Source: Bacteroidales bacterium (GTDB taxonomy: Bacteria; Bacteroidota; Bacteroidia; Bacteroidales; UBA3824). Taken from it: 64,000 nucleotides of DNA. Numbering within the stretch: the stretch's first letter is position 1; each line of letters starts with the position of its first letter. The notes below the pieces were generated by a model that worked only from the letters and a program-made list of their open reading frames with translations, was not told where the DNA came from and made no database searches. The stretch is from contig JAFXUC010000045.1 of assembly GCA_017535325.1 (NCBI GenBank), positions 3,169-67,168 on the forward strand, given 5' to 3'. The position numbers and the translations under genes are program-made. Positions 37,165-53,710 of the stretch are shown here, in pieces.

Positions 37165-38328
37165 TTACTTGATTCTGTATCCGCCGATTAATACATCGTC
37201 AATTTGTGGAAAATTCCCGCGCCACTGAGTTAAAAAATCGTCCAATTTTTGCGACTGTTCTTCTCCTGAAAATTCTGAAAACGAACTTAGCAACTCTTTG
37301 AAACGCTTGTATGTTACCTTGCGCATTGTAGAGCCGCTGAACTGGTCTGCAAAACCGTCTGAAAACATATACAACCAATCACCGCTTTCAACCTCTATTT
37401 CTTCTGTTTCAAAACTTTTTGGTTTCGGGTGATAGCCTATTGGATTTTTAACGGCTTTATATTCCGTTAATTCGCCTTTTCTTACAAGGTACAAAGGATT
37501 GTTGCCGCCGGAAAACCGCAGTTTTTTGGTTCTTAAATTCAGAATGCAAAGAGCCATATCCATACCGTCCTGAGGTTCTTTTTCGTTAACGTCTTGACTG
37601 AGTGCGCCGGTAATGCAGGTTCTGAGTTTTTCCAAAACCTCTGACGGCAAAGTGTTTTCGTCTAAGTCTATGCAAATGTCGTTCAAAAAAGTGATTCCTA
37701 AAAGACTCATAAATGCACCCGGAACACCGTGTCCTGTACAGTCTGCAACTGTAAACACCAAATTTTCGCCCGAAAGTTTCATCCAATAAAAATCGCCCGA
37801 AACGATTTCTTTCGGCCTCCAAAACAAAAAGTAGTCAGCAAAATTATGTTTTAGAATCTCTTTCGAGGCTAAAACCGCCAACTGAATCCGCCGCGCATAT
37901 CGTATGCTGTCGGTTACGGAGCGGTGTTTTTTTTCGATGTCGGCTTTTAAGGCGGAAATATGTTCTTTTTCTTTTTGAATCAGCAGCGACATATCCCAAA
38001 GCCGCTTGTTTTTCTCGGAAAATTCTTCTTTTTCCTGAGCCAACTTTTTTTGCTCCATCAAGAGGGTATTGGCATCAACGGAAAAAGTCTGAATGTCTGC
38101 TTTAACGGTTTTTACGGGTTCGGCTTTTGAGGTTTTGAGGTTTTCGTAAAGTGTTTTTTCGCGTTCAAGTGCATCTTTATAAATGCGTATTTCTTCTTTG
38201 AAGCGGTTTTCGACGCGTTTTGCGGCTTTTGCTTTGGCGATATGAATCCTGCGGCGGATTACTACGGCGTAAAAAAACGCGCAAATCGCCAAAATTATCA
38301 AAATAATATGTAAATAATCGAGTCTCAA
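37165..38328 (-). CDS. membrane-anchored PP2C/SpoIIE-family protein phosphatase (cassette copy 2)
   Basis: N-terminal TM helix (HIILIILAICAFFYAVVI then RRR), coiled coil, then YARRIQLAVL, SGDFYW, VADCTGHGVPGAFMS, DGMDMA and MFSDGFADQF. TTG start overlaps the upstream TGA (TTGA). Confidence 0.85.
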   Translation of the reverse strand: MRLDYLHIILIILAICAFFYAVVIRRRIHIAKAKAAKRVENRFKEEIRIYKDALEREKTLYENLKTSKAEPVKTVKADIQTFSVDANTLLMEQKKLAQEKEEFSEKNKRLWDMSLLIQKEKEHISALKADIEKKHRSVTDSIRYARRIQLAVLASKEILKHNFADYFLFWRPKEIVSGDFYWMKLSGENLVFTVADCTGHGVPGAFMSLLGITFLNDICIDLDENTLPSEVLEKLRTCITGALSQDVNEKEPQDGMDMALCILNLRTKKLRFSGGNNPLYLVRKGELTEYKAVKNPIGYHPKPKSFETEEIEVESGDWLYMFSDGFADQFSGSTMRKVTYKRFKELLSSFSEFSGEEQSQKLDDFLTQWRGNFPQIDDVLIGGYRIK

Positions 38329-39650
38329 TTTATTTGCAGTTTTTCTAACGATGAAACATTATAAACGTAAATTCTGTTGCCCAAACCGATGTTGTTGATG
38401 TTCATATTTACCGCCGATTCGGAAGAAATTCTTGACATGAAGACATCGTAGCCGCCGTTGCCGTCTTTGAAACAAGCGTAACATGCTATTCCGTCATCAT
38501 AGTCAAGGCGCACATATTTTTGTATTGTGCCGTCAAGTGATACCACCGACAAAACGCCCGTCATGCTGCCCACCATTTTTAGGAGTGCCGACATTGTGGT
38601 GATTGACGACGCGCCGCTGACTTCGATACCGGCAAAATAGATTTCGTTGTCTATTTTCATGGCGTTTGAAAAAAAGGCGTCGGTCGTGGGGACGCGGATA
38701 TATTCGCTGCCGTTTTCGTCCAAAACCAAAGCGCATGTGCCGGTGTTGTCAACGGCTGAGATGTAGGCGTATTTGCTGTCAGGCGCAAAAATGTACGGGG
38801 AATAGTCTATCGCCGAACTGTTGATTTGCTGTCCGTCAAGCGAGAAAATTTTCAAAAAATAATATCCGTCGGCGTTGGTGTAGTAGATAAAAATATTGTT
38901 GTTTATCGAGCAGGTTTCTACGATGCTGATAGTTTCATCAAACGCCAAATCCGTTTCGTGTTCTGTTTTGCCTTCATTGTTTATGTATCTTAACCTCAAA
39001 TCGTAAGAGGTGTTTTGCTGCATCATTCCTTGGTTCGGCACTTGAAATATCATAGCGTAACCGCCGTTGTCCAAGGGAGTTCCGTTGACGGGGATTTTGC
39101 TGACGGAATTGTTTGCTCCGCCGCCCATTCCGCCTCCTCCGCCGTTCATCATATTGACGGTGCTGTCGAGTTGAAAAAGTTTTTGTCCGTCTTTGTCAAA
39201 TTTTACGACAGCGTAATATGTGCGTCCGAAATTGTTTGAGGAGTAAAATTCAAAATAAAACTCGTCGTTGGCGTTTTTGCGGACTGTACCGGCAGAGACG
39301 TCAACTTTTGTCTGCATTTCTGCGGCAGACTGTTTTGAGATGTCTTCTCGGTTTTTGTCTCCGGGGTTGTCTCCGTTATTGTTTACGGGGTTGCGCACAG
39401 ACTCGTTCCAAGAAAGCGCAAAAGTTGTTTTGGTGATTTCGGCGTTGCGGTCTATTTTTACGAAATTGTAGTTCAGCGTGTCGTGTTCGGAGGTGATGGT
39501 GATTATCGAACCGTCAGAGCACGCAACGGGAAAAAACATCGGCGAAACCTCAACCGATTTTACCGGCGAAGCCTCGTAATCCGAAAAAACTGTTTCGTTT
39601 TCGCACGAAAACAAAAACAGAAGTACTGATATGAATAATGCCTTTTTCAT
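38325..39650 (-). CDS. hypothetical lipoprotein (cassette copy 2)
   Basis: Lipobox LLFLFSC, beta-rich, internal Gly run (NGGGGGMGGG). C-terminus YVYNVSSLEKLQIN resembles that of the 45156 paralog. Confidence 0.6.
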   Translation of the reverse strand: MKKALFISVLLFLFSCENETVFSDYEASPVKSVEVSPMFFPVACSDGSIITITSEHDTLNYNFVKIDRNAEITKTTFALSWNESVRNPVNNNGDNPGDKNREDISKQSAAEMQTKVDVSAGTVRKNANDEFYFEFYSSNNFGRTYYAVVKFDKDGQKLFQLDSTVNMMNGGGGGMGGGANNSVSKIPVNGTPLDNGGYAMIFQVPNQGMMQQNTSYDLRLRYINNEGKTEHETDLAFDETISIVETCSINNNIFIYYTNADGYYFLKIFSLDGQQINSSAIDYSPYIFAPDSKYAYISAVDNTGTCALVLDENGSEYIRVPTTDAFFSNAMKIDNEIYFAGIEVSGASSITTMSALLKMVGSMTGVLSVVSLDGTIQKYVRLDYDDGIACYACFKDGNGGYDVFMSRISSESAVNMNINNIGLGNRIYVYNVSSLEKLQIN

Positions 39651-39664
39651 AATTTTCTTTTTTG

Positions 39665-40735
39665 TTAATAACCGTAACCGTATTTGGCTATTATGCCGTA
39701 GCCAAAATTTATTTTAACGCCCACACAGATATTTGTAAAACTGAAACTTATCGCATCCGGTACAAACAACTTGTTGTAAACCAGATTGTTGTCAGAATAA
39801 TTGTATTCAGGATTGTTGTGCGGTTTCAGCATTGCGGTTTTGGTAAAATCCGCGAAAACGGATATGCGGTTGTAATTTCTGCTGATTCTAATCCGCGAAC
39901 TTATTGCGCCGTTTATGCGGTTTTTGGTTTTTAAGTCAATGCTGCTTTTTATGAAGTTGTTTTGCTGCGTGTTGATTGCGTTGTATGCCTCGTAGTCCGC
40001 TTTCATGATAAAGTTGAGTTCGCCGCCCAAGAAAATTTCGGGAGTCCATTTGCCGAGGTCGAAAGCGTAACCGACATAGAGCGGAATTGCGCCAAAATGC
40101 ACCGATTCTTTGTAAACAAAATTGTAGTCGACATTCATGAGCCCTGTTTCCCCGTTTTTTGACAGCGTCCTTGAATATTGCGCAAAACGGTATTTTATGC
40201 CGGTTAACACGGAAAGCGTTTTTATCGGACGGTATTGCAGCGAAAAGTCAAACGTATAGCCGATAATATCCTCGTAGGAGGGTTCGTTTTCTTTGTTTTC
40301 GCCGACAACATGGACGGTGTCAACTGAGATTTTCGGAGCGCAGATTCCCGCCGAAAAGCCGACAGAAAACTTCGGGTATGCATGATAATTCAAAAATATT
40401 TCCTTAAAAGGCAGCGGGTCTTCTGTTACGGTTTCGTAAAACGGATTTTTTGTGACAAACGTTCTTACAAGCGAATCCGCTTCTGACTCAAATCCCGACT
40501 CCCTTAAAACCGACGAATAATATTTCAGATATTCAGAATAGTTTTCAGAACTGAGTTTGCCGTTTTGACGGATTTGTTCGGCGGTTTTGCGCGCGTCGAA
40601 GTATTTGCCGGCATTGTAAAATCTTTTTAAGTCAAAAAGCAACATTCCGGCAGTGTCGGTTTGTGCCTTTGCGTTTAAAGCACAAACCGAAGTAACAACA
40701 GTCAAGATTAATATTTTCAATGTTTTATATCCCAT
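39665..40735 (-). CDS. secreted protein with helical N-domain and beta-barrel-like C-domain ending KYGYGY (cassette copy 2)
   Basis: Signal peptide ...SVCALNAKAQ, an N-terminal region of about 100 aa that looks helical or TPR-like, then alternating beta pattern and an aromatic C-terminus. An alternative ATG at 40750 would overlap the NTPase stop. Confidence 0.55.
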   Translation of the reverse strand: MGYKTLKILILTVVTSVCALNAKAQTDTAGMLLFDLKRFYNAGKYFDARKTAEQIRQNGKLSSENYSEYLKYYSSVLRESGFESEADSLVRTFVTKNPFYETVTEDPLPFKEIFLNYHAYPKFSVGFSAGICAPKISVDTVHVVGENKENEPSYEDIIGYTFDFSLQYRPIKTLSVLTGIKYRFAQYSRTLSKNGETGLMNVDYNFVYKESVHFGAIPLYVGYAFDLGKWTPEIFLGGELNFIMKADYEAYNAINTQQNNFIKSSIDLKTKNRINGAISSRIRISRNYNRISVFADFTKTAMLKPHNNPEYNYSDNNLVYNKLFVPDAISFSFTNICVGVKINFGYGIIAKYGYGY

Positions 40736-40736
40736 A

Positions 40737-43700
40737 TCAAAAATCATCAATATTAGAAAACTCTTTGCCTAAAATCAGTTCTTTTTCTGCCGGTGTCAGC
40801 GGCTTAGGATGCATTTCTGAAAGTATTGCGGCATATTTGTTAATGTCGGTATACCAAAAGCGCACCTGATTGTCTTCTGTCAGAGCGAAAACCGTGCCTA
40901 AGGAATTGAAAGCCGCCGATTTTACCTTGCCTTTGAGACTGTGCTCTTCTATGCTGACGATTTTGCCGTTTTTGATGTCGGCGGTGTTGATAAGCGCAAT
41001 TCTCTTGTCCGCGCTTGCCACGGCAAGAAAACCCGTTTTGGAATCGTAGCACATTTTTTCTATTTGGACGTGTCCTCCGGTGCGGCTTGCCACAACAAGG
41101 TCGGTTGTCATATTCAAAAATTTTACGTTGCCGTCGGCAAAAGAGACCGCCAAAAGGTTTTTGTCGGGAATTGCCTCCAACGCAAAACCGAAATTCTGAC
41201 CTTCTTTTTCAATGAGGATTTTTTTCTCGCCGGTTTTATAATTCCATTTCAAAAGTCTGCCGTTGTGCTGCAAAATGTAGATGCCGTTGTTTGTGGGATA
41301 AATTCCGGTTATTTTGTTTCCGAAATTCGCCTCGGTTATCGGTTTGTCCTTTGGTCTGGTCGGTATGGTGATGATAATCCGTCCGTCCGTAAAACCCAAA
41401 ATAAGAAGCAAATTGTCAGGCAGCATTACCGCCTGAGACAGATAGCCTTTTTGCTTTTCAAGATTGAATACGGTTCCCGATTCTATGTCAACAAAAAACA
41501 AATTTCGGTCTTTTGTTGACAAGACCGCCGTAAACCCGGAAGTAAACAGTGCGCGTTCAACAAGCGTTTTCCCTTCAAAGGCTTTTATGGATTTTGTGTT
41601 TTTTGCCTTGTTTTCCTTTAAGTCGTAAACATTTACAGTGCCGTCTTCGCTTACGATTTCTATTTTGTCGGAAGCGTTTATGCGGAAGGCGGACATTCTT
41701 TCGGGAAGTTTGCTGAGGGTATTTTTAAAAGGTGTCTGCTCAACGGCGTAAAGCATTGCGTCATAAAGGATTGCGTCGTTTTGCTTGTCCTTGTTGGTTT
41801 CGTTCATTTTATATGCCGCCCACGCGAGTTTGATATTGAGGTCCTTGTCCTCGTACTGGTTTTTGGCGTTCATGGCAAGCATGTTGCAAAGAGTTATGTT
41901 ATAAAGCCGTGCGGCTGAATCGCTCGCAATTTTTGCTTTCATTTCCTCCTCTTTGGCTTTTTGCTCTTCCTCCTGGGCTTTTTTGCGCTGTTCTTCGGCG
42001 ATGGTAAGATTTTTTTCCGCCTCCAAACGGCTGGCATTTGCAAAGGCAAAGGCAGTGTTGGCGCGGTTCAAAGCCTCCTGCGCGGCAAGTTTGGCTTTAC
42101 GGGCTTCTTCCGCCTCGCGCTGTGCGTTGCTTTTTTCCACCTGCGCCTGAATGTTGGCCTGGTCGGCAATGCCGCGCTGCTGTTCGGCGAGTTCTCTTTG
42201 ACGCTCGGTCGCGATTTTCTGCTTTTCGGCACGGTCTCTTTCTTCGTTTGCAGAGGATTTTTCCATCAACGCCCACGAGGTAAAACCTGCCATTGTCAGC
42301 AGGAAAAATGCGATTGCGACAAAAATAACTTTCATGCGGCGTTTTCTTGCCTGTTCTTTTTCCAAAAGCGCGTTGTGGCTTTCCTCCAAATAGTCGGTAC
42401 AGTCTTCAAAATGCGCAACAGCCTTTTTGCGTTTTTCCTGTTCCGAAATTTTGCTTGTATCATAACGCGCTATCCAATAAGGATTTGGACGTGATTTGTT
42501 GTACCAGTCATTGAAGTAGTTGTAAGAGCCGCTTGTCAGAAGAAACTCCGGACTTTTATCTTGGGAGAGCCAGCGCGAGACTTGCGAGTTGAAGTCGTGA
42601 TAATCCTTTGCGTTGCTTTCCATTTGTGCTCCCCACTGAGCGAACATTTTCCAGTTACGGATAAGAGCCTCATGCGTGATGTCCAACACCGTGTCGCCGC
42701 TGAGATATTGCGTTTCAAGTTCTCCGTCCTCGATAAAGGGCCGCAAAAGCGTGTTGTCAGGACTGCGGAAAATATTCAAAACGCCGCAGACCGTGGCGTT
42801 TGTGATGTTTTCTTTTCCGATGATGCCCGTGATTTCGTCTACGGTGCAGCGGTTTCTTACCGGACGGTTGTTGTCTATTTTGACGAGCGACTTAAATGCC
42901 GCCTCGATGATTTCCTTGCTTTCCTCATTCGTGATTGATTTTTCAGCCCAAGGAGCGTTTTTTTGAAAATAATCGAAAGCCGATTCGTAGAGAATACCGG
43001 CATGGGCGTTCAAAACGTTGTTCAAATCGGGCTTTTCAAAATATTTTTTTTCGTAGTCGGGGCGCATGGCAAACCACTTGTCGAACTCTTTTCTTTCGCC
43101 GCCCGACAAAACCTCTTTTGAAATGCCGGCAATTTTTGCCAAATGTATCAAATCCAACTCTTTCTGACCGTTGTCAGCCATTTTCCAAAGAAGATGGAGC
43201 GCGTGCTGCAAAACCGGCAACTGGTCAAAACCGTTGTTAAGGTTGTTGACAATCACTTCTCTCAGACGGTCGGAAACTTTTCCGCCGGCAAGCGCGGCAG
43301 GCTCTTCGATAACCTGGCAGATTTCGGTGCGTTTTAACTGCGGCACAAAAAACTGCGAATATGCGATAAATTCGGGAAGGTTTTTAAAAACCGTACATTG
43401 CGAAATAAAGTCGCTGCGCATCGTAAAGATGACGTAGACGGGAAGGTTTTCCGTTACGGCAATTCTGACGGTTTCAAGCAAAAGATTTATAGCCGTGTAA
43501 CTTTCTTCGCTCGGCTCTCCGTCATTAAAATTGTCAGAATTTGTAAAAACTTCCTCAAACTGGTCGGCGATTATCAGCAGGTTTTTGCCCTGATTGGCAT
43601 CTTCGGCATAAAATCCGTGTCTTTTATAAAGGTCAACGACCGACGAAAAACCGTTGTCAAGTTCTGATAAAAAGTCAGAATAATCAGCATTCATTTGCGT

Positions 43701-43988
43701 TGCCAACGCTTCTGCGAGTGATGCTAACGGGTTTCGTTGCGGCTTGAAGTCGGCAATAATCCAAGAATTGAAATCGGCTTTGAAAAATCCGGCACGTATA
43801 TACGGCACAACTCCGGCATAAACCATTGACGACTTTCCGTCGCCGGACGCGCCGGTTATAAACGCCATTTTGTTTTCTTCCAAGAGTTTTACAATCTGGC
43901 GTATATGCAAATCCCGCCCTTTGAAGAAGATTGACTCTTCCTCAGTAAAAGGTCTTAAACCGGGATATGGACAAATGCCTCGTTTCAT
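40737..43988 (-). CDS. STAND-like P-loop NTPase with TM helix, coiled coil and C-terminal WD40-like beta-propeller (cassette copy 2)
   Basis: CPYPGLRPFTEEESIFFKGRD...AFITGASGDGKSSMVYAGVVPYI (Walker A), LLIIADQFEEVFT (Walker B). TM helix VIFVAIAFFLLTMAGFTSWAL preceded by RKRRMK. About 130 aa rich in A/E/K/Q. Blades such as LAVSFADGNVKFLN, LAVASADKRIALIN and FALTEDNQVRFW. Confidence 0.8.
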   Translation of the reverse strand: MKRGICPYPGLRPFTEEESIFFKGRDLHIRQIVKLLEENKMAFITGASGDGKSSMVYAGVVPYIRAGFFKADFNSWIIADFKPQRNPLASLAEALATQMNADYSDFLSELDNGFSSVVDLYKRHGFYAEDANQGKNLLIIADQFEEVFTNSDNFNDGEPSEESYTAINLLLETVRIAVTENLPVYVIFTMRSDFISQCTVFKNLPEFIAYSQFFVPQLKRTEICQVIEEPAALAGGKVSDRLREVIVNNLNNGFDQLPVLQHALHLLWKMADNGQKELDLIHLAKIAGISKEVLSGGERKEFDKWFAMRPDYEKKYFEKPDLNNVLNAHAGILYESAFDYFQKNAPWAEKSITNEESKEIIEAAFKSLVKIDNNRPVRNRCTVDEITGIIGKENITNATVCGVLNIFRSPDNTLLRPFIEDGELETQYLSGDTVLDITHEALIRNWKMFAQWGAQMESNAKDYHDFNSQVSRWLSQDKSPEFLLTSGSYNYFNDWYNKSRPNPYWIARYDTSKISEQEKRKKAVAHFEDCTDYLEESHNALLEKEQARKRRMKVIFVAIAFFLLTMAGFTSWALMEKSSANEERDRAEKQKIATERQRELAEQQRGIADQANIQAQVEKSNAQREAEEARKAKLAAQEALNRANTAFAFANASRLEAEKNLTIAEEQRKKAQEEEQKAKEEEMKAKIASDSAARLYNITLCNMLAMNAKNQYEDKDLNIKLAWAAYKMNETNKDKQNDAILYDAMLYAVEQTPFKNTLSKLPERMSAFRINASDKIEIVSEDGTVNVYDLKENKAKNTKSIKAFEGKTLVERALFTSGFTAVLSTKDRNLFFVDIESGTVFNLEKQKGYLSQAVMLPDNLLLILGFTDGRIIITIPTRPKDKPITEANFGNKITGIYPTNNGIYILQHNGRLLKWNYKTGEKKILIEKEGQNFGFALEAIPDKNLLAVSFADGNVKFLNMTTDLVVASRTGGHVQIEKMCYDSKTGFLAVASADKRIALINTADIKNGKIVSIEEHSLKGKVKSAAFNSLGTVFALTEDNQVRFWYTDINKYAAILSEMHPKPLTPAEKELILGKEFSNIDDF

Positions 43989-43992
43989 TTTT

Positions 43993-45159
43993 TTATTTTA
44001 TCTGATACCCGCCGACAAGTACGTCATCGAGTTGCGGCATTGTACCGCGCCACTTAGTTAAAAAACTGCTTAACCTTTCGGATTGCAACTTGCCCGGAAG
44101 TGCTGAAACCGATGTCAGCAACTCCCTGAATTTTTTGTACGTTAATTTGCGGTTTCCGCCGCCGAACTGGTCTGAATAGCCGTCAGAGAACATATAAATC
44201 CAGTCGCCGGACTGGACATCTGCTTCCGCAGTTTCAAACGGACGCACAAAAACATACGAACCTATCGGATTTTTTACAGGTTTATATTCCGTTAATTCGC
44301 CGTTGCGGATTAAGTACATGGGATTGTTGGCACCCGCAAAGCGCAGTTTGTTGGTTTCTAAATTCAGAACGCAAAACGCCATGTCCATACCGTCGTCCTG
44401 CTTGCCGAAAGTGTTGTCCTGACTCAGTGCCCGTATAATGTCAGCCCGCAACTTTTCCAAAACTTCGCTCGGCTGGGTGTTTTCGTCCAAGTCTTTGCAA
44501 ATCTCGTTCAAAAACGTTATGCCCAAAAGACTCATAAACGCGCCCGGAACACCGTGTCCCGTACAGTCGGCAACCGTAAACGCCACTATGTCGCCCTGAC
44601 GTTTCATCCAGTAAAAGTCGCCCGAAACTATGTCCCTCGGACGCCAAAAAAGAAAGAAATCCGCAAAACTGAGTTTCAAAATCATTTTCGGAGGCAAAAC
44701 CGCCAACTGAATCCGGCGTGCATAACTTATACTGTCTGTTACCGAATGGTGCTTTTCCTCAATGTCGTTTTTCAAAATTTCGATATGCTCCTTCTCTTTT
44801 TGAACCGCCAACGACATTTCCCAAAGTTTTTTGTTGCGCTCGGTGATTTCGCTTTTTTCTATTTCAAGTTTTTGCTGTTCGAGAATGATTCTTTCTGCGG
44901 TTTTAAAGACCTCGTCCGCCGAAATATTGTCGTTGTCAGGCAGAATTTTGGGCTGATTAGCCGGCTCGTTTTTAAGATTTTCGTAAAGCGTTTTATAACG
45001 CAGAACCTCGTCCGAGGAAAAACGGATCTGACGTTTCAAATCCTTGTTTGCCTCGAATACAGCCGTTCTTGCCGCTCTGCGCCGCGTTAAAAAGAAATAA
45101 ACCGCCGCCAAAACCGCCAAAACAAGCAAAATTATAAGTATATAGTCTAATGTTGTCAA
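43993..45159 (-). CDS. membrane-anchored PP2C/SpoIIE-family protein phosphatase (cassette copy 1)
   Basis: Same architecture and motifs as 37165-38328, and the same TTGA start/stop overlap with the upstream lipoprotein gene. Confidence 0.85.
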   Translation of the reverse strand: MTTLDYILIILLVLAVLAAVYFFLTRRRAARTAVFEANKDLKRQIRFSSDEVLRYKTLYENLKNEPANQPKILPDNDNISADEVFKTAERIILEQQKLEIEKSEITERNKKLWEMSLAVQKEKEHIEILKNDIEEKHHSVTDSISYARRIQLAVLPPKMILKLSFADFFLFWRPRDIVSGDFYWMKRQGDIVAFTVADCTGHGVPGAFMSLLGITFLNEICKDLDENTQPSEVLEKLRADIIRALSQDNTFGKQDDGMDMAFCVLNLETNKLRFAGANNPMYLIRNGELTEYKPVKNPIGSYVFVRPFETAEADVQSGDWIYMFSDGYSDQFGGGNRKLTYKKFRELLTSVSALPGKLQSERLSSFLTKWRGTMPQLDDVLVGGYQIK

Positions 45160-46496
45160 AGTTCAAGTTTTTTTAAGTCGTCGGTCTGATAAATGTGAAA
45201 TTTATTAGACCAGACATCAGAAGCCGTGTTTCCGGTTACGTCCTCGGGACGCAACTCCTTATAATAAACAGTATAAATGCCGTTTTCGTACCAAACACCG
45301 TGTATTGCAGTTGAGTTCTGTCCGCGCATATTAAACAACTCGCCGTCCTTGATTATAAAACCGTCGCACTGTTCGGCGGTGTATATGTATTCAGCAGAGT
45401 ATGACCCTGTATATTTTTTCTTGCAATAACCGTACAAAAATTCACTGCCGCCACATTCAGTTCCGCCAAGGATGTAATAAGTAGAATCCGTGCCTTGAAT
45501 CGGTTTTATTTCACTCTCAGGGTAGACAAGTCTCTCGTAACTGTATGTTCCCGTAACAGAAACTACCGAAGAGCCGTTCTCGTTGACTTCTATTGTGTCT
45601 GTATTGGTTTTCAGATGCAGCATTACGGTTGCGAGACCGGTATATACCGCCTTTGAACTAACGTAGTCGTCAGCCTCGGTGCCATACTGCTCTGTTTTGC
45701 CCTCTGTAGAAACTGCTATCGTACTGCGTGTTCCTTTGTCGTTGTTGAAGTCGATAAAAACCATATTGCCGCTCGAATATGCACGGAAAACGTAGCCTTC
45801 GTTGTTGATTTCTGCCGGACATTTGTTTTCAATACTGCCGTCAGGGGCAAGAGTCATGATTTCCCATTCGTCGGGTGTCACTTCGCCTGTGTACCAGTCA
45901 TTCTTACCCTCTTTGAAAAACAAAACCGCAAAACGTCCGCCGCTGAGAGGCGCACCGAATTTAGGAGCGAGAGACCCGTTTCCGCTGTAATAGTCACCCG
46001 TGTTGTATGCCGCGCAGTGTTTGTAGATGACGTTGCAGTCTTTGTCGAACCTTATGACGCAGAGTTCCGAGATTCCGGCGTGATTGCGCGACGACCCTAT
46101 TCCGAAACTGAAAAAACCGCCGTCGTCGGATTTGTAAATGTCCTGTACGCTTATATAATGGCGGAGGTCGCCTTTTACCTCGTCAAAATTGTCTATGTTG
46201 CCGTTAATCCATTCGGGTTCTATGTGGACGAGTTCCTTTGTACCGTTTTGATTTATTATCACAAGGCGGGAATCCGAGGATTCTTCATGCCAGCCCGTTT
46301 GTCCGTATTCAAAGCCGATTAGACGTCCGTTTATGACCACCGGGTATACGTTGTTGTCAAGTTGGACGGTTTTTACAGGCTGAGTATTGCTGAGCGTGTC
46401 AACAAACACTCCGCCGTCCATAAGTATGCCGCCGTCCTTGCAGCCGGAAATCAAAATCAAAGCCGATAATATGACAATCAATTTTCTCATAATCAA
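45156..46496 (-). CDS. hypothetical lipoprotein (cassette copy 1)
   Basis: Lipobox ALILISGC, beta-rich, C-terminus HIYQTDDLKKLEL. A distant paralog of 38325-39650. Confidence 0.6.
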   Translation of the reverse strand: MIMRKLIVILSALILISGCKDGGILMDGGVFVDTLSNTQPVKTVQLDNNVYPVVINGRLIGFEYGQTGWHEESSDSRLVIINQNGTKELVHIEPEWINGNIDNFDEVKGDLRHYISVQDIYKSDDGGFFSFGIGSSRNHAGISELCVIRFDKDCNVIYKHCAAYNTGDYYSGNGSLAPKFGAPLSGGRFAVLFFKEGKNDWYTGEVTPDEWEIMTLAPDGSIENKCPAEINNEGYVFRAYSSGNMVFIDFNNDKGTRSTIAVSTEGKTEQYGTEADDYVSSKAVYTGLATVMLHLKTNTDTIEVNENGSSVVSVTGTYSYERLVYPESEIKPIQGTDSTYYILGGTECGGSEFLYGYCKKKYTGSYSAEYIYTAEQCDGFIIKDGELFNMRGQNSTAIHGVWYENGIYTVYYKELRPEDVTGNTASDVWSNKFHIYQTDDLKKLEL

Positions 46497-46503
46497 TTCC
46501 TTT

Positions 46504-47679
46504 TTAATATCCGTACCCGTATTTCGGAAGTGTCCGGTAAAACATATTTATTTTTACCCCGAAACTCAGCGAAATCTGGTTGAGCCGCATAGCGTCGGGT
46601 ACAAACAAGTGGTTTACAGCGAGTTCGGGATTTTTGTATTTGTCTTCTGGTTTTCTGAGTTCCTTGGTTGCAAAACCGTAAGACAGCCCCGCAAAAGCGC
46701 AGAATCTGTGGTACTCGTAGTTGAGTCGTATGCCGCCGTAAACTGTCATAAAACGTGATTTCTGATCTTTGAACCTTCCCTCGCAATAAACAGAGTCAAG
46801 ACGTTTGTTCTCAACGACTTCAGACCGCTTTAAATCTTTTATGCTGTAAGTGCTTTCATAAAAGACAGAGTATTTTATTCCGGCAAAAATCTCCGGTCTT
46901 ACAACGCCGTAAACCGCGGGCGCAATATAGGAGACCTCTGCCGGAATACTGAAAAACTTGTCTTTTTCAGTATAAGAGAAATGTACGTTTTCTCCGGCTT
47001 CAAGTCTTGTGTAAGAAAATTTTGAAAAGGCGAATCCGCCGGAGAGCGACACATTTTCAAACGGGTAAAACACCGCCTGAATTTCAGAAGACGAGGCTTT
47101 GAAATTCGAGTATATGTATTTTCCGTCCTTTGCCCTTACCGTATAGACAGTGTCAAGTACAACTATCGGGTAAACTTTTGATATTGTAACCTTTACGCCG
47201 AAAACAGGACGTGATATAAAATTCTTTTTGAGGCTGACAAAAGCCACAGGGTCGTCGTCTTTAATTTTGTAAAACGGAGCCTGACGGCAAAAAATTTTCA
47301 TCAGAGAGTCGGAGGTTTTTCCGTAGCCCATTTCTTTTAACGAGGCGATAGCGTATTTGTGAAAATCCTCTTTCTGCTGTTTCGATAGTTTTTCCTCATA
47401 TTGTCTTCCCTTGATGACAAAAGCCTTTTCGAGCGATTCCCTGAAACGTCCTGAATTGTAAAGCGTTTTTAAGTTTTCGATTACGATATCGATGTTTTTT
47501 GTGGAGTCGTCGGCGGAAACTGTCTTGAATTTTCCGTTGAAATTCTCCGGCAGAGCCTCCTCCGGCGTTGTCAGATTGTCGAAAAGGGGAATGTAGCCGT
47601 CCGGTTTTGAAGTGTCTTTCTGTGCAAAAACTTCTAAACAGACGGTCAGAAAAAATGCTATGAGAATTGTCTTTTTCAT
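46504..47679 (-). CDS. secreted protein with helical N-domain and beta-barrel-like C-domain ending KYGYGY (cassette copy 1)
   Basis: Signal peptide MKKTILIAFFLTVCLEVFAQ (start set at ATG 47679; the tracked start is 47733). Same C-terminal PKYGYGY as the copy-2 paralog. Confidence 0.55.
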   Translation of the reverse strand: MKKTILIAFFLTVCLEVFAQKDTSKPDGYIPLFDNLTTPEEALPENFNGKFKTVSADDSTKNIDIVIENLKTLYNSGRFRESLEKAFVIKGRQYEEKLSKQQKEDFHKYAIASLKEMGYGKTSDSLMKIFCRQAPFYKIKDDDPVAFVSLKKNFISRPVFGVKVTISKVYPIVVLDTVYTVRAKDGKYIYSNFKASSSEIQAVFYPFENVSLSGGFAFSKFSYTRLEAGENVHFSYTEKDKFFSIPAEVSYIAPAVYGVVRPEIFAGIKYSVFYESTYSIKDLKRSEVVENKRLDSVYCEGRFKDQKSRFMTVYGGIRLNYEYHRFCAFAGLSYGFATKELRKPEDKYKNPELAVNHLFVPDAMRLNQISLSFGVKINMFYRTLPKYGYGY

Positions 47680-47767
47680 AAAGGACAAAAGTATAAAAAA
47701 AATGACAGCCGTGAAAATATATTGCAAAAACAAGGCAAAATTTCACTTTTTTTAAAAAAAAGTTTTA

Positions 47768-47775
47768 TAATTTTG
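47768..47775 (+). promoter_or_regulatory. -7 box TAATTTTG upstream of the DUF3990-like gene
   Basis: Exact TAnnTTTG match 32 nt before the ATG at 47807. Confidence 0.4.
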
Positions 47776-47806
47776 TTAGATTTATTAATTTTGGTAAATT
47801 TGCGTT

Positions 47807-48268
47807 ATGGAAACGATTTTGATATATCACGGCAGTAATATAGCCGTTCAGAAACCGAAAATTCTGGTCAGTGGTTTTTATAAAGATTTTGGATTCGGAT
47901 TCTATTGCACCCGTTATGAAAAACAGGCGCAACGCTGGGCTCTCAGTAAGAATGGCGGCGGTATAGTTTCAGTTTATGAATATACCGGAGGGGCTGAGTT
48001 GAATATTCTGAGGTTTGATTCCATGACCGATGAATGGCTGGATTTTGTGGCAGACTGCCGGCGAGGTCTTGAACATTCATACGATATTGTAGAAGGTCCG
48101 ATGGCTGACGACCAAATTTGGGATTATGTTGAGGATTTTGCCTCCGGCAGTATTTCCCGTGAGGCGTTTTGGGCTTTGGCAAAATTCAAATATCCTACCA
48201 ACCAAATTGTCTTTACCACAGAAACTGCTTTAAAATCAATAATTTTTAAAAAATCTTACTCGTTATGA
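47807..48268 (+). CDS. DUF3990-like protein
   Basis: ILIYHGSN...P......KDFGFGFYCT...QAQRWA and DIVEGPMADDQI patterns recalled from the DUF3990 family. From memory, not searched. Confidence 0.55.
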   Translation: METILIYHGSNIAVQKPKILVSGFYKDFGFGFYCTRYEKQAQRWALSKNGGGIVSVYEYTGGAELNILRFDSMTDEWLDFVADCRRGLEHSYDIVEGPMADDQIWDYVEDFASGSISREAFWALAKFKYPTNQIVFTTETALKSIIFKKSYSL

Positions 48269-48735
48269 AAAATGTTTTCTTTCCCGATGAGGACATCACG
48301 GAAAATGACTTGTATTTTGTCTGTTACATGATAGAAAAAGTTTCCCGGCAGATTAAGCAGCCGAATAAATACGCTGTCAACCAAATGGGGTATGACGAAT
48401 TGTCGAAAAAACTCTCTTCGGCAAGTGTTCTTCATTGTCAGAACCCGCTGCAAACCGCCGCAGAATGGATTGAGGAATTTTCATTGGAAAAAGGAACTTT
48501 CGACGTTTCTGCCGTCAATCCTTATTACTGTGAAAAAATTCCGACTGAAACTCAAATGGGAAAAGTTTATAAACGCTTGGTTTTGGATACAATGCCGTTT
48601 GAAGAGGATTATGCTCAGGCTATAATCCGCGTTTACAACAACGAAATTTGCAAAACCATTGACAACTATAATTGCAGTGCGTATTACGAACCCTCACCGT
48701 ATATCGCAAGAAGTTATTTTGCGGGAGGTTTTTGA
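48265..48735 (+). CDS. DUF3791-like protein
   Basis: ATGA-overlapped partner of the DUF3990-like gene. The LYFVCYMIEKVSRQ...VLHCQNP pattern resembles DUF3791, the usual neighbour of DUF3990. Confidence 0.5.
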   Translation: MKNVFFPDEDITENDLYFVCYMIEKVSRQIKQPNKYAVNQMGYDELSKKLSSASVLHCQNPLQTAAEWIEEFSLEKGTFDVSAVNPYYCEKIPTETQMGKVYKRLVLDTMPFEEDYAQAIIRVYNNEICKTIDNYNCSAYYEPSPYIARSYFAGGF

Positions 48736-48747
48736 TTTTTGGGGAGG

Positions 48748-51700
48748 TTACAGTCCTCCTGCGAACTCCCGTCCCAAAACCATTTTCTTTTCATCGCTTG
48801 TAAGAGGTTGCAGGTTAAGAGTCTGCAAGGATTTGGCGTATTGTTTTATGTCGGTGTCCCAATAAAGAATTGAGTTGCGGCCGGTCAGCGCGAAAACCAT
48901 GCCTTTGGAATTGAATCTCAAAGTGTTGGCTCTGCCGCCGCGCAAATTCTGCTCCTCAATAAAATAAGGCTGCGAAACATAGTTGTTGACATCAACAACC
49001 GCAATTCTTTTGTCGCTGCCAGAAAGTGCCAAAAGTCCCGTCCCTGAATCGTAGACCGCATGCTCAAACTTTGAAGGTCCGTAAGTAAACTCGCCAGTAA
49101 GAGTCCCCGTCAGAGTGCTGACAAGGCAGACTAAGCCGTTGCCGTAACAAACCGCCAAAAGATTCTTGTCCCTTAAATCCGCAAGCGCGAAAGCGTTGGG
49201 ATAGCGGTAAGTCTTTTTGAAAACTGTCGTGGTGTCGCCCGTTGCGGAGTTCCATTTAACAAGTGCGCCAGAATGTAACAGAACGTAATAGACATCGGGG
49301 TCGGAAGATGTACACACACCGATGATTTTACGGTTGAAGTTGTAGCCTGTAAACGCGCCTTTTTCAGGAAGTTGCGCATCGTAGACAAAAACGTTTCCGT
49401 TGTCAAAGCCTGTGATAATGCGCCGTCCGTCGTCAGAAAGCGCGCTTGCGTTTATGTATCCAGAGGGTTTCAACTGCGAAACACTGCGGTCTTGAATGTC
49501 CGTCACAAAATTTCTTCCGTCAAGACAACTGCAAAGAAAATATTTGTCGTTTAGAAAATACGCAGAAAGAACCGGTATGGAGTTTTCCGAGGCTTTTATG
49601 CGCATAAATTCCTGCGGACGGTCGCCGGAAATTTTGTAACCCGCAATCTCGCCTTTGTCAGTTGCCGTAAAGAGGCGGTTTTGAGAGTCAACGTAAAAGT
49701 CCGAAATGTCGGCGTCGTTGATTTTCAGTGAGTTGTCGAATCCGTTTTCGTGCATTGCGCAGACCATTGCCGCGTAAATTTCGGGCGTGTTTTCTGTTAT
49801 CTCAAACTCCTTGTTGATAAGCCATGCCGACCACGCAAGACGGAGGTTCATGGACTTGTCTTCGTAACGGTTTTTTGCTTTCATGGCAAGGGCATTTGAG
49901 ACGGCGATATTGTAGAGCCGTGCCGCGCTGTCTGAGGCTTTGTCGGCTTTCAATGTCTGCTCCTCCGCCAAAAGACGGGCTGTTTCCGCCTCTTGACGCG
50001 CTTTTTCCGCAATGTCAAGATTGTGCAGAGCCTGGTCTTTCATGTCGTCGGCAAGGATACGGGCAGCGTTTGCCGATTCGTAGGCGGAGAGAGCCTCAGC
50101 CTTCGCTTCCTGCGCTTTCAGAGCCTCAGCAACCGCTTTTTGACGCTCTGTCTCGGCTCTTTTTTCGGCATCAACGGCACGCTCTTTTTCTTTCTTGTTG
50201 AGAGCAGCCTGATTTTCAGCCTCCAATGTTTTTTCTGCGGCAAGTTTGGATTGTGCCTGCGCCGTGTTTCTTTCTTCTAACGCCCAAATAGCAAAACCCG
50301 TCAGGAAAATTAATGAAACCGTGATTAACGTACCGATTATACGGTTTTTACGTTTCTTTGCTTTTTGTGCCGCTTCAACTGCGCTGCGGCTTTCGGTGAT
50401 AAAATCTTTGCAGTTTTTCGCCAAAACGTCCGCTTTTTTCAGTTTGTCGTTGAGAGGCAGTTTGCTGGTGTCTGATTTTGAAAGCCAAAACGCATTCGGT
50501 CTGACACGCGTGTACCACGTTTCAAAGTATTTAAGGTTGCCCGCCGGAAGAAGGAATCCCTGTTTTCTGCCGTTAGACTCCCAACGTGTCATCTGTATTT
50601 TAAAATCGTGAAAATCCCTCGTATCGTTAGCCTCTTCGGTGTTCCAATGTTCGAGTTTTTTCCAGTTACGGATAAGAGCCTCGTGCGTGATGTCAAGCAC
50701 CGTGTTGCCGCTAAGATATTGGGTTTCAATATCTTCCGTTTCGATGAACGGGCGCAAAAGCGTGTTGTCGGGACTGCGGAAAATATTCAAAACGCCGCAG
50801 ACCGCAGCCGTTGAGACATTCTCCTTGTTGATAATTCCGGTGATTTCGTTGAGCGTGCAACGGTTTCTTACCGGGCGGTTGTTGTCAATTTTGACCAGAG
50901 ATTTAAAAGCCGCCTCAATGATTTCCTTGCTTTCCTCGCTCGTGATTGATTTCTCTGCCCACGGAGCGTTTTTTTGAAAATAATCGTATGCAGATTCGTA
51001 GAGAATACCGGCATGGGCATTCAGAACGTTGTTCAAATCGGGCTTTTCAAAATATTTTTTCTCGTATTCAGGACGCTTGGAAAACCACTCGTCAAAGTCT
51101 TTCCTTTCTTCAACAGAAAGAACGTTCCTTGAAATTCCCGCAATCTTTGCCAAGTGGATAAGATCTAACTCTTTTTGTCCGTTGTCAGCCATTTTCCAGA
51201 GCAAGTTGAGCGCGTGCTGCAAAACCGGCAACTGGTCAAAACCGTTGTTTAAGTTATTGACAATTACTTCCCTGAGACGGTCTGAAACTTTTCCGCCTGC
51301 AAGAGTAGCCGGTTCTTCGATGACCTGACAGATTTCGTTTCGTTTTAGTTGCGGAACAAAAAACTGCGAATAAGCGATAAATTCAGGCAGGTTTTTAAAA
51401 ACTGTACACTGCGAAATAAAGTCGCTTCGCATCGTGAAAATGACGTAGACGGGAAGGTTTTCTGTTACGGAGATTCTGACGGTTTCAAGCAGAAGATTTA
51501 TAGCCGTGTAACTTTCCTCGCTCGGCTGTCCGTCGTTGAAATTGTCAGAATTTGTAAAAACTTCCTCAAACTGGTCGGCAATGATAAGAAGATTTTTTCC
51601 GTTGTTAGGGTCTTTGGCATAAAAGCCGAGTTTTTTATAAAGGTCAACAACCGACGAAAAACCGTTGTCAAGTTCTGCTAAACATTCCTCATAATCGGCA

Positions 51701-52002
51701 TTCATTTGTGTTGCTAACGCTTCTGCGAGTGAGGCTAACGGGTTTCGTTGCGGCTTAAAGTCGGCAATAATCCAAGAATTGAAATCTGCTTTGAAGAATC
51801 CCGCGCGGATATAAGGCACAACACCTGCGTAAACCATTGAAGACTTTCCGTCGCCGGACGCGCCGGTTATGAAAGCCATCTTGTTTTCTTCCAAGAGTTT
51901 AACTATCTGACGTATATGCACGTCCCTTCCCTTGAAGAAGATAGACTCTTCCTCAGAGAACGGTCTCAGACCCGGATATGGACAAATGCCTGACTGCTTC
52001 AT
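48748..52002 (-). CDS. STAND-like P-loop NTPase with TM helix, coiled coil and C-terminal WD40-like beta-propeller (cassette copy 1)
   Basis: Same N-terminal motifs as 40737-43988. TM helix IIGTLITVSLIFLTGFAIWAL preceded by KAKKRKNR, an A/E/K-rich coiled coil and a WD40-like C-terminus (LAVCYGNGLVCLVS, LALSGSDKRIAVVD, FALTGRNSILYW). Confidence 0.8.
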   Translation of the reverse strand: MKQSGICPYPGLRPFSEEESIFFKGRDVHIRQIVKLLEENKMAFITGASGDGKSSMVYAGVVPYIRAGFFKADFNSWIIADFKPQRNPLASLAEALATQMNADYEECLAELDNGFSSVVDLYKKLGFYAKDPNNGKNLLIIADQFEEVFTNSDNFNDGQPSEESYTAINLLLETVRISVTENLPVYVIFTMRSDFISQCTVFKNLPEFIAYSQFFVPQLKRNEICQVIEEPATLAGGKVSDRLREVIVNNLNNGFDQLPVLQHALNLLWKMADNGQKELDLIHLAKIAGISRNVLSVEERKDFDEWFSKRPEYEKKYFEKPDLNNVLNAHAGILYESAYDYFQKNAPWAEKSITSEESKEIIEAAFKSLVKIDNNRPVRNRCTLNEITGIINKENVSTAAVCGVLNIFRSPDNTLLRPFIETEDIETQYLSGNTVLDITHEALIRNWKKLEHWNTEEANDTRDFHDFKIQMTRWESNGRKQGFLLPAGNLKYFETWYTRVRPNAFWLSKSDTSKLPLNDKLKKADVLAKNCKDFITESRSAVEAAQKAKKRKNRIIGTLITVSLIFLTGFAIWALEERNTAQAQSKLAAEKTLEAENQAALNKKEKERAVDAEKRAETERQKAVAEALKAQEAKAEALSAYESANAARILADDMKDQALHNLDIAEKARQEAETARLLAEEQTLKADKASDSAARLYNIAVSNALAMKAKNRYEDKSMNLRLAWSAWLINKEFEITENTPEIYAAMVCAMHENGFDNSLKINDADISDFYVDSQNRLFTATDKGEIAGYKISGDRPQEFMRIKASENSIPVLSAYFLNDKYFLCSCLDGRNFVTDIQDRSVSQLKPSGYINASALSDDGRRIITGFDNGNVFVYDAQLPEKGAFTGYNFNRKIIGVCTSSDPDVYYVLLHSGALVKWNSATGDTTTVFKKTYRYPNAFALADLRDKNLLAVCYGNGLVCLVSTLTGTLTGEFTYGPSKFEHAVYDSGTGLLALSGSDKRIAVVDVNNYVSQPYFIEEQNLRGGRANTLRFNSKGMVFALTGRNSILYWDTDIKQYAKSLQTLNLQPLTSDEKKMVLGREFAGGL

Positions 52003-52021
52003 GAAAATTTTCCTTAATACG

Positions 52022-52029
52022 TCAAATAT
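52022..52029 (-). promoter_or_regulatory. -7 box TATATTTG (minus strand) upstream of cassette copy 1
   Basis: Plus-strand CAAATATA, 19 nt upstream of the NTPase ATG at 52002 and downstream of the gpmI terminator. Confidence 0.4.
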
Positions 52030-52048
52030 AGTTTACCCCAAAATATAT

Positions 52049-52080
52049 GCCAAAAAGGCTGCCGGATATAAAGGCAGCCT
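52049..52080 (-). terminator. rho-independent terminator after gpmI (minus strand)
   Basis: 9-bp stem AAGGCTGCC / GGCAGCCTT. On the minus strand it is followed by TTTTTGG. Confidence 0.6.
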
Positions 52081-52102
52081 TAATTGTTCTAAAAATTCAC
52101 TT

Positions 52103-53638
52103 TTAATCCGTAATCAAATCATGTCCAGTCATCTCTTTGGGCTGTGCAAGTCCCATGATGTGGAGAATTGACGGAGCAACGTCTGCCAAAACGCCGTCTT
52201 TTACCTTTGCGTTCTTGTTTTCGGTAACGTAGATAAAAGGTACGGGGTTCAAAGAGTGTGCCGTGTTAGGCGTGCCGTCAGCATTGATTGCATTGTCGGC
52301 GTTGCCGTGGTCAGCAATGATAATGGTCTCGTAGTCAGCGGCTTTGGCTGCCTCAACTACTTCTTTAACGCACTGGTCAACGGCTTTTACCGCTTTTTCA
52401 ATTGCTGAATATACGCCGGTGTGTCCTACCATGTCGCCGTTTGCAAAGTTTACGACGATCCAGTCATATTTCTTTGTGCCGATAGCCTCAACGAGTTTGT
52501 CTTTTACTTCAAAAGCCGACATTTCGGGTTTGAGGTCGTAGGTCGCAACTTTCGGAGAGTTGACAAGAATTCTGTCTTCGCCCTCGTAAGGAGCCTCCCT
52601 TCCGCCGTTGAAAAAGAACGTAACGTGTGCGTATTTCTCTGTTTCAGCGGTGTGAAGTTGTTTCAAGCCTTTTGACGAAATGTATTCGCCGAGAGTGTTC
52701 TCTACGTTTTCTTTCGGGAAAAGAATGTGTACGCCTTTGAAAGAAGCATCGTAAGGAGTCATGCAGTAATACTGCAAATCCTTGATTGTCTTCATTCCCT
52801 GCTCGGTCATATCCTGCTGCGTCAAAACAACGGTAAGTTCTTTTGCGCGGTCGTTGCGGTAGTTGAAGAAAATTACGACGTCGCCTTCCTTGATTCTGCC
52901 GTCAACGGTGGAGTTAACGAGCGGCTCCATAAATTCGTCGGTGTTTTTATGCTCTTCGGTGTGAGAGTCGTAGCAAGACTGAACGCCCTGAACCATGTCA
53001 GCAACCTGACGGCCTTTGCCTTCAACGAGTTGGTCGTAAGCAACTTTGATTCTGTCCCAGCGTTTGTCGCGGTCCATTGCGTAAAAACGTCCGATAATAG
53101 AGGCGATGTGTCCGCAGCCAATTGTGTCAATGTGTTTTTGAAGGTCGGCGATAAAACCTTTGCCGGATTTCGGGTCGGTGTCGCGGCCGTCCATGAAACA
53201 GTGAACGAAAGTATTTTTTATACCGTAAACTTTTGCAATATCAATGAGTTTGAAAAGATGATCCAAAGAAGAATGTACGCCGCCGGTAGAGGTCAAGCCC
53301 ATCAAGTGAACGCTTTTGCCGTTTTTTTGAGCGTAACCGTAAGCCGATTTTATTTCGGGGTTTTCGAGAATCGAGTTGTCTTTGCAGGCGCGGTTGATTT
53401 TTACAAGGTCCTGATAAACGATTCTTCCGCCGCCGATGTTAAGGTGTCCTACTTCCGAGTTTCCCATCTGACCGTCGGGCAAACCAACGTTTTCGCCCGA
53501 AGCTAAAAGTTGTGAATGAGGATAATTTGCGTTAAGATAATCCATATAAGGGGTGGGCGTCTGATAAATAACGTCGCCTTTGCCCTTGTCGCCGATACCC
53601 CAGCCGTCGAGTATCATCAAAAGTGCTTTTTTTGCCAT
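52103..53638 (-). CDS. gpmI: 2,3-bisphosphoglycerate-independent phosphoglycerate mutase
   Basis: [27 protein letters not shown] motifs, about 511 aa. Confidence 0.95.
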
Positions 53639-53710
53639 TTCAAATTTCGTTTTAAATAAAATTTTTACGCTGCAAAGTTAATATTTTTTTTGAAAAAAAA
53701 CGATTTTTTT

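Follow-up and report, generated by a model that had tools for sequence, protein, structure and literature searches.

Plant and fungal clusters of NLR/STAND receptors combine a conserved nucleotide-binding domain with variable sensor repeats, and sequences are exchanged among the clustered paralogs. The diversification of fungal NLRs has been described (PMC13449251), and long-lasting concerted evolution of prokaryotic paralogs by gene conversion has been surveyed (PMC6053082). In the conflict systems of Kaur et al. (PMC8195603, in which nSTAND1 was named; PMC7159879), the nSTAND1 proteins have effector or adaptor domains at the N-terminus (TIR, caspase, trypsin or effector-associated domains, EADs) and cytosolic sensors (FGE/CLec); nSTAND1 proteins targeted by diversity-generating retroelements are also known (PMC10907252). 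Here we describe a locus in a 64,000-nucleotide stretch of the genome of a rumen Bacteroidales bacterium (assembly GCA_017535325.1, contig JAFXUC010000045.1; hereafter the window, to which positions refer) that encodes two nSTAND1 NTPases, NT1 and NT2, nearly identical in their N-terminal halves and deeply diverged in the rest. The genes are part of two tandem cassettes located on the minus strand between iPGM (52103-53638) and polA (34327-37098). Cassette 2 consists of NT2, OMP2, LIP2 and PP2C2, and cassette 1 of NT1, OMP1, LIP1 and PP2C1, where OMP, LIP and PP2C stand for an outer-membrane beta-barrel protein, a lipoprotein and a phosphatase. Neighboring genes lie end to end or overlap by a few bases, and a 959-bp insertion on the opposite strand splits NT2 from OMP2. 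The likeness of the N-halves is probably due to strong constraint together with an old gene conversion limited to one domain, the envelope modules being two anciently separate types.

An earlier sequence-only reading of the window had claimed that the N-halves of the two NTPases differ at about one residue in ten before identity collapses, and a global MAFFT alignment bore this out: residues 1-447 of NT1 and 1-448 of NT2 share 91% amino acid identity (40 differences), and about 34% identity is found beyond them. The step is sharp and occurs directly after the residues ALIRNWK. At the nucleotide level, the N-halves are 86% identical, with nonsynonymous and synonymous divergences (dN and dS) of 0.05 and 0.72 and a dN/dS ratio (ω) of 0.07; past the break, the proportion of synonymous differences (pS) is saturated and dN reaches 0.71, so the divergence is not uniform along the proteins. 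The other paralogs behaved as anticipated. The barrels and the lipoproteins are only distantly similar (27% and 23% amino acid identity), and the PP2C proteins (62% overall) are intermediate in their catalytic part, with 66-86% identity compared to 41-47% in the N-terminal transmembrane (TM)/coiled-coil part. Two details of that reading had to be amended. The long identical runs that it singled out are at chance level for sequences 86% identical: its 40-mer is found exactly at 43199 and 51210, within a 42-nt identical run, and the longest run of identical codons is 14 (permutation P=0.51). Furthermore, the near-identical segment was described as the cytoplasmic half of the protein, but the Pfam nSTAND1 model (aa 7-480) continues for about 33 residues beyond the break and the TM helix (aa 554-572) is reached only later, leaving about 105 cytoplasmic juxtamembrane residues on the diverged side. 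The four-fold degenerate sites of the NT1/NT2 pair alone gave an ambiguous signal (0.52 in the propeller and 0.60 in the N-half). Therefore, phylogenetic tests were needed.

In these tests the window (W, with W1 and W2 denoting NT1 and NT2) was compared with G, a syntenic metagenome-assembled genome (MAG) from goat (locus L001, copies G1 and G2), and with T, the group formed by L002 and L033 (T1 being its NT1-type gene). L001 is syntenic with the window (97% and 93% amino acid identity in iPGM and polA) and keeps both cassette types in the same order. In the quartet W1, W2, G1, G2, the N-half had 56 sites supporting the concerted topology, in which the copies of one genome group together, 24 supporting the orthologous topology and seven supporting the third; the corresponding numbers were 38, nine and three when only synonymous changes were considered. 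The C-half, by comparison, had 24 concerted, 454 orthologous and 23 third-topology sites (Fisher P=1.5e-38 for the contrast between halves). A quartet of G and T gave 51:10:4 in the same order. Neighbor-joining trees of the N-half grouped G1 with G2 (95-96% bootstrap) and, at third positions, W1 with W2 and T1 (100%). Those of the C-half recovered W2 with G2 (100%), L005 and L011 joining at 98%, and W1 with G1 and T1 (96%), L003 joining also at 96%. Identity at four-fold sites was 0.60-0.68 within genomes versus 0.51-0.54 between them. Most of the concerted signal comes from nt 78-1105 of the gene, with 48 concerted and seven orthologous sites inside this interval and eight and 17 outside in a two-breakpoint partition whose maximum chi-square was exceeded in none of 300 permutations; the orthologous signal is retained at both ends of the N-half. 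The mosaic recurs at the same boundary in the G1-G2 pair, where two young tracts were also found, one at nt 31-224 (six mismatches) and another at nt 756-896 (two mismatches, with a 97-nt exact run; heterogeneity permutation P 0.007-0.009). Gene conversion homogenizing the NTPase module, one of the two possibilities raised earlier, is thus supported by trees that conflict at bootstraps of 95-100% and by quartets that include synonymous sites only, but in the window it is old, to judge from a dS of about 0.7. The PP2C genes, also analyzed as a quartet, had 131 orthologous, 29 concerted and 18 third-topology sites; the concerted ones cluster at nt 451-750 of the gene (13 versus 11 orthologous), and the corresponding part of the catalytic core (37591-37890 and 44416-44715) may be a small, old conversion patch.

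Several observations weigh against conversion in the window. No recent tracts were detected in the NT1/NT2 pair by a synonymous-codon permutation (P=0.5), the synonymous differences being evenly spread, and it is only the phylogenetic contrast that points to conversion there. The GC content at third codon positions (GC3) is 0.50-0.52 in the W cassette genes versus 0.40-0.42 in L001, and the bias of the concerted sites runs the same way (31 versus 12), so part of them could reflect parallel compositional drift. Both cassette types are present in only three genomes (W/V, G and T), all of them MAGs or metagenome contigs. Finally, dS between cassette "orthologs" is 0.9-1.4 versus 0.5-0.67 for the flanking iPGM and polA, which indicates that the history of the cassettes includes exchange with other lineages and blurs the timing. 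Base composition was discarded as the cause of the grouping within genomes: T1, with a GC3 of 0.40, still groups with W; the C-half, used as a control, has no concerted excess (24 versus 23); and the shift in GC3 is too small, about five parallel sites being expected by our own estimate. The window as a whole has 41% GC, and the GC3 of the T1 cassette falls within 0.40-0.42; the history of the cassette block (37165-52002 versus L001) is apparently unlike that of its flanks.

The second possibility raised earlier was strong purifying selection on the NTPase module together with diversification of the extracytoplasmic parts. Purifying selection on the module is real and family-wide (ω about 0.06). 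The 27 members compared, from 32 loci, have a mean pairwise identity of 0.78 at residues 5-447 and of 0.40-0.41 afterwards, the drop occurring at the same place as in NT1 and NT2; ω for the N-half ranges from 0.05 to 0.08. These values, and the even spread of the synonymous differences between W1 and W2, are what would be expected if a single ancient duplication of the cassette had been followed by slow change of the NTPase module, with no exchange between copies. Nonetheless, we consider it very unlikely that selection alone produced the mosaic. It predicts one topology for both halves, and the topologies conflict with high bootstraps, also at synonymous sites. The family background, composed of 113 homologs (6,328 pairs), led to the same conclusion. 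The ratio of C-half to N-half amino acid divergence, computed for the 6,242 pairs whose C-halves are less than 85% identical, has a median of 2.3 and a 99th percentile of 3.75, and that of the NT1/NT2 pair is 7.5. Pairs with 30-40% identity in the C-half have a median N-half identity of 0.71-0.73, so that selection alone predicts about 72% at the divergence observed here rather than the 91% found, and an N-half identity of at least 0.86 with a C-half identity below 0.45 occurred exclusively in NT1-type by NT2-type pairs of W, T and G. Dispersed paralogs within the same MAGs (L007, L012 and others) share only 73-78% identity in their N-halves. Constraint alone explains only a baseline of about 72-83% identity. 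It does not account for the step either. In NT1 orthologs ω is 0.06 in the N-half, 0.07 in the juxtamembrane region, 0.06 in the TM helix and coiled coil and 0.13 in the propeller, and the paralogs have a ratio of C-half dN to N-half dN of 11-15; since the juxtamembrane, TM and coiled-coil regions are as constrained as the N-half, and yet are 34% identical between the paralogs, constraint cannot generate the drop from 91% to 34% at residue 447.

Diversification of the envelope part was not seen as a raised dN/dS. Pairwise pN/pS in 40-codon windows was at most 0.52 throughout the envelope half, a comparison from which localized positive selection could escape, and ω is about 0.13 in the propeller. 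The two possibilities raised earlier thus both apply in part, constraint and old conversion acting together. The envelope modules resemble long-standing types, each maintained separately, that pass from strain to strain. Two alleles of one locus illustrate such an exchange. The NTPases P0051 and P0068 (L076 4949-8212 and L079 3892-7179) are 99.6% identical at the amino acid level in their N-halves; pS is about 0.1 up to codon 520 or so and 0.5-0.76 thereafter, where identity falls to 40-70%. Here the envelope module was swapped between alleles, with the breakpoint just before the TM helix and not at residue 447. At the protein level, P0044 and P0087 showed the reverse mosaic, the last 250 or so propeller residues being 100% identical and the rest 50-100%, mostly 60-90%.

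Exchange of this kind suggests another origin for the mosaic, namely a fairly recent duplication of the cassette after which the envelope module of one copy was replaced by a divergent allele from another strain. The conserved N-half and the PP2C core would have served as anchors for the recombination, and the N-halves would be alike as those of young duplicates. Besides the swap between P0051 and P0068, in its favor are the low identities of LIP2 (34%) and OMP2 (49%) between the window and L001 despite 97% identity in the flanking iPGM, and a block of 4.2 kb found among strains of the window species. Three contigs (L071, L072 and L075) match the window except for 40 single-nucleotide polymorphisms (SNPs) confined to 43328-47487, which includes OMP2, LIP2, PP2C2 and the first 661 nt of NT1; this block is a tract of homologous recombination between strains that ends inside the conserved N-half. 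However, the same two types are found in the same order in the window and L001. The two-cassette state is therefore older than the split of these lineages, and yet the N-halves group by genome in both, which calls for either exchange after the split or two identical, independent histories of duplication plus import. Short patchy tracts such as those of G1 and G2 are in addition typical of conversion between paralogs. For these reasons we regard the import as unlikely, if less so than selection acting alone. The eight SNPs of the block that fall in the NT1 N-half were also considered as a product of paralog conversion and this was rejected, as one of the eight matches NT2 and all belong to the 4.2-kb allelic block.

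Smaller patches were identified in other strains. In L080 (GCA_036343515.1), aa 104-108 of NT1 (nt 306-354 of the gene, 10306-10354 of L080) read EECLA rather than the SDFLS of nearly all NT1 alleles of the same species. All eight clustered differing bases are those of the neighboring NT2 copy, generating a 76-nt identical run and a candidate tract of 49-76 nt. The SDFLS state was seen only in NT1 of the window species and the outgroups also carry the E.CL motif; the polarity is thus ambiguous, and either L080 underwent a short conversion between paralogs or the window lineage (W1) a clustered replacement. L066, a strain otherwise 99.7% identical to the window, has 27 SNPs within 165 bp of LIP1 (38535-38699, about 16% divergence), which looks like a short import into the propeller lipoprotein.

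The sequence-only reading had also pointed to the repeated N-half as a substrate for deletion or amplification of a whole cassette. This is plausible in principle and found no support: no hybrid of an NT2 N-half with an NT1 C-half was present among the 28 cluster-member proteins listed, and both cassettes were found in every contig recovered for the window species, an observation made on contigs rather than on reads. A metagenome scan for further tandem pairs added only L033, from another rumen genome, with the same arrangement as L002. In this contig (L033 1-3700) an NT2-type gene lies head-to-head with an NT1-type cassette, 0.9 kb apart and with a small OMP-like open reading frame (ORF) between them. 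The NT2-type gene is 98% identical at the nucleotide level to 50566-52054 of the window, and the contig stops 93 nt past the boundary between its N- and C-halves. The arrangement of L033 and L002 may be a rearrangement or an assembly break, the L002 contig having a low coverage tag.

Repeats can mislead assemblers, and over the part compared (38748-54000) the window is 100% identical to a contig assembled from a metagenome with MEGAHIT (ENA, L073). It could then be argued that the N-halves look alike because a repeat was collapsed or made chimeric, for which we see practically no chance. The copies differ at 14% of their bases, and the longest exact run, of 42 nt, is far below k=141. At least 8-15 contigs from various samples and assemblers have the two-cassette layout at 99.7-100% identity, as do the NCBI MAG L080 (98% identity) and a different species (L001). 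Neither of the two objections to the mosaic that had been foreseen, a uniform divergence and an assembly collapse, holds in view of the sharp step and of at least eight independent contigs with the same layout.

Constraint combined with old conversion can be formulated as follows. NT1 and NT2 belong to tandem copies of a four-gene cassette predicted to span the envelope, composed of an nSTAND1 NTPase with a periplasmic propeller, an outer-membrane barrel, a propeller lipoprotein and a membrane PP2C. The variable modules, from the juxtamembrane region through the propeller plus the barrel, the lipoprotein and the N-terminus of PP2C, fall into two anciently diverged types (NT1-type and NT2-type), both of which have separate relatives in other genomes. 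The NTPase module (aa 1-447) would act as a generic engine; it is under strong purifying selection, which would keep it similar enough for homologous recombination, and it would have been overwritten between neighboring copies by gene conversion at least twice, in the window/T branch and in the L001 branch. Of the possible forms of recombination, we infer that non-reciprocal conversion was at work. The tracts would end with the loss of homology close to the end of nSTAND1. Conversion may be tolerated in the N-half because this part is interchangeable, and rejected in those that must match their partners, as the C-half would have to remain matched to its own barrel and lipoprotein. Since the homogenization in the window appears to be old (dS about 0.7), the present 91% protein identity would be held by selection on top of a clock reset by conversion.

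Compared to the concerted evolution surveyed in prokaryotes (PMC6053082), the locus is alike in that paralogs of the same genome are closer to each other than to their orthologs, synonymous sites included, and in that this recurs in separate lineages. It differs in that the homogenized segment is one domain of a multidomain gene with a sharp stop, beyond which the gene is deeply diverged, as are its partners, and in that homogenization seems episodic, and old in the window, rather than ongoing. With the NLR/STAND clusters it shares a conserved STAND engine, a variable C-terminal repeat or propeller sensor, multiple paralogs per genome and recombination among copies or alleles. Unlike in those clusters, the sensor gave no indication of positive selection (pN/pS not above 0.52), the NTPase is membrane-spanning with a propeller predicted to be periplasmic, and the barrel and the lipoprotein, encoded by genes of their own, are part of the variable unit. 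The combination of gene conversion with purifying selection is nothing unusual as an evolutionary mechanism. What the locus would provide is a clean, quantified bacterial case of domain-limited concerted evolution, in which one gene has two histories separated by a sharp boundary, independently in two lineages. It would also mark the NTPase module as functionally interchangeable and the part from the juxtamembrane region to the propeller, together with the barrel and the lipoprotein, as the specificity unit, a prediction that can be tested.

Table 1. Location in the window of the cassette genes, their modules and the inserted gene pair.
Feature	Position	Strand	Description and basis
NT2	48748..52002	-	ORF, 1084 aa; Pfam nSTAND1; weak beta-propeller matches; one TM helix, aa 555-573
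NT2 N-half, putative homogenized module, aa 1-448	50659..52002	-	Alignment with 42648-43988; quartet and tree evidence
NT2 C-half, putative NT2-type specificity module	48748..50658	-	Groups with L001 NT2 and with L005/L011
NT1	40737..43988	-	ORF, 1083 aa, NT2-like architecture; nSTAND1; WD40-type propeller matches (Pfam, PDB); TM helix
NT1 N-half, putative homogenized module, aa 1-447	42648..43988	-	Alignment, quartet and trees; Walker A/B read from translation
NT1 C-half, putative NT1-type specificity module	40737..42647	-	Cytoplasmic juxtamembrane region aa 448-553, TM, coiled coil of about 120 aa, propeller; groups with L001/L002 NT1 and L003 (bootstrap 96%)
Core of the conversion signal, approximate	NT1 42887..43914 (alignment nt 78-1105); NT2 ~50898-51925	-	Best two-breakpoint partition of informative sites
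OMP2	46504..47733	-	Outer-membrane beta-barrel protein of cassette 2; OMP1 homologs carry PF13568
LIP2	45156..46496	-	Lipoprotein of cassette 2; signal peptide and Cys
PP2C2	43993..45159	-	N-terminal TM (aa 7-25), coiled coil, SpoIIE/PP2C phosphatase (PF07228)
OMP1	39665..40750	-	Signal peptide, helical periplasmic N-domain, small beta-barrel; AlphaFold2 (AF2) model, pLDDT 79
LIP1	38325..39650	-	Beta-propeller lipoprotein; AF2 model, pLDDT 76, all-beta blades
PP2C1	37165..38328	-	TM (aa 6-24), coiled coil, SpoIIE/PP2C phosphatase (PF07228)
Insertion, 959 bp	47789..48747	+	Two-gene candidate defense/toxin pair (ORFs 47807-48268 and 48265-48735); PADLOC PDC-M10A/B, E=4e-73 and 1e-76; DUF3990

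The positions of the cassette components are shown in Table 1. The nSTAND1 (PF20703) matches of NT1 and NT2 scored 221 and 227 bits versus a cutoff of 27.1, the model spanning aa 7-480 in two stretches, and the Walker A (GASGDGKS) and Walker B (LLIIADQFEE) motifs are intact and identical in both translations. Repeats of the type found in C-terminal sensors were also present, with WD40-type propeller matches at aa ~770-1060 (Prp19 WD40 in PDB, E=3e-6). The TM helix is followed by a charged coiled coil, and the location of the propeller beyond the helix is atypical for nSTAND1 NTPases. The true start of OMP2 is probably near 47679, its L080 counterpart being called as 391 aa. Foldseek searches matched the OMP1 model to barrels of the OmpT/Pla/OmpX/OmpW type and the LIP1 model to the propellers of CylK, NHL, YncE and WDR91. 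PP2C1 and PP2C2 scored 70.1 and 68.5 bits with PF07228 (cutoff 25) and both conserve the motifs ADCTGHGVPGA, MFSDG and DDVL. PP2C1 resembles the C-terminal phosphatase domain of SiaA (E=7e-48, 164 bits versus an equivalog cutoff of 700). All complete loci examined have a PP2C gene downstream of that for the NTPase, with or without barrel and lipoprotein genes between them, which indicates that the core link is that of the STAND NTPase to PP2C. In other genomes, cassettes were single and at other loci. Decayed cassettes were observed in L029/L064 (10001-12114) and L030 (10001-18839), with large internal deletions in the NTPases (one lacks, for example, aa 97-320) and frameshifts in the lipoprotein and PP2C genes.

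A function for the cassettes is suggested by their predicted architecture. A periplasmic propeller on a long coiled coil would reach the cognate barrel and lipoprotein at the outer membrane, where binding or perturbation would switch the cytoplasmic NTPase, which in turn would act through the membrane PP2C. The family has more than 2,000 homologs annotated only as hypothetical or WD40-repeat proteins. PADLOC gave no match for the NTPase, barrel or lipoprotein and a marginal one for PP2C (E=0.008), NCBIfam had nothing for the first three, and the PDB sequence search returned generic WD40 matches only. Like the nSTAND1 conflict systems, the locus has an NTPase of the PF20703 clade coupled to a putative variable sensor, with several divergent copies per genome. 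Unlike in them, the NTPase is the first domain of the protein, a TM helix is present, and PP2C, an outer-membrane barrel and a lipoprotein are linked to it. No domain is found ahead of nSTAND1 and no effector or effector-associated domain (nuclease, TIR, caspase, EAD) was found fused or adjacent to it, PP2C being the sole enzymatic neighbor in the cassette. The PP2C proteins share with the SiaA and SpoIIE/RsbU-type membrane phosphatases the PF07228 domain, the match to the C-terminal domain of SiaA, a membrane anchor and a catalytic domain predicted to be cytoplasmic. They differ from those of the SiaA type in scoring far under the equivalog cutoff and in belonging to a cassette without partner-switching genes (STAS or kinase).

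The NTPase clade, the several paralogs per genome, the allelic exchange of modules and the inserted PADLOC candidate pair are circumstantial support for a role in defense or recognition. As a tentative idea, and a doubtful one at present, the cassettes might represent an undescribed class of envelope-spanning NLR-like receptors of gut and rumen Bacteroidales, in which the periplasmic propeller docks with the cognate barrel and lipoprotein and the NTPase signals via PP2C. If this were true, they would evolve in the manner of NLR clusters, with an engine kept uniform by conversion, polymorphic specificity modules swapped between strains and defense genes landing at the same spot, and their task would presumably be to recognize non-self, such as phage or competitors, at the cell surface. 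Were the cassettes surface-sensing immune or recognition systems, the evolutionary logic of NLRs would extend to membrane-spanning bacterial receptors.

Between NT2 and OMP2, L001 and L080 have 11 nt instead of the insertion, which is thus polymorphic among close relatives. It is a separate element and not an ancestral part of the cassette. DUF3990, found in the inserted pair, belongs to the ART clan (PMC7955679) and is known as a C-terminal domain of Rhs toxins (PMC4524185). Adjoining iPGM, a gene at 53711-55492 (minus strand) encodes a methyl-accepting chemotaxis protein (HAMP and MCPsignal domains) that is 76% identical in L001 compared to 93-97% for its neighbors. Further away, a gene for a protein with the SocA_Panacea domain (30186-30776, plus strand; ENA annotation of L067) is followed by a 135-aa ORF (30780-31187, plus strand), and the two are a possible toxin-antitoxin pair.

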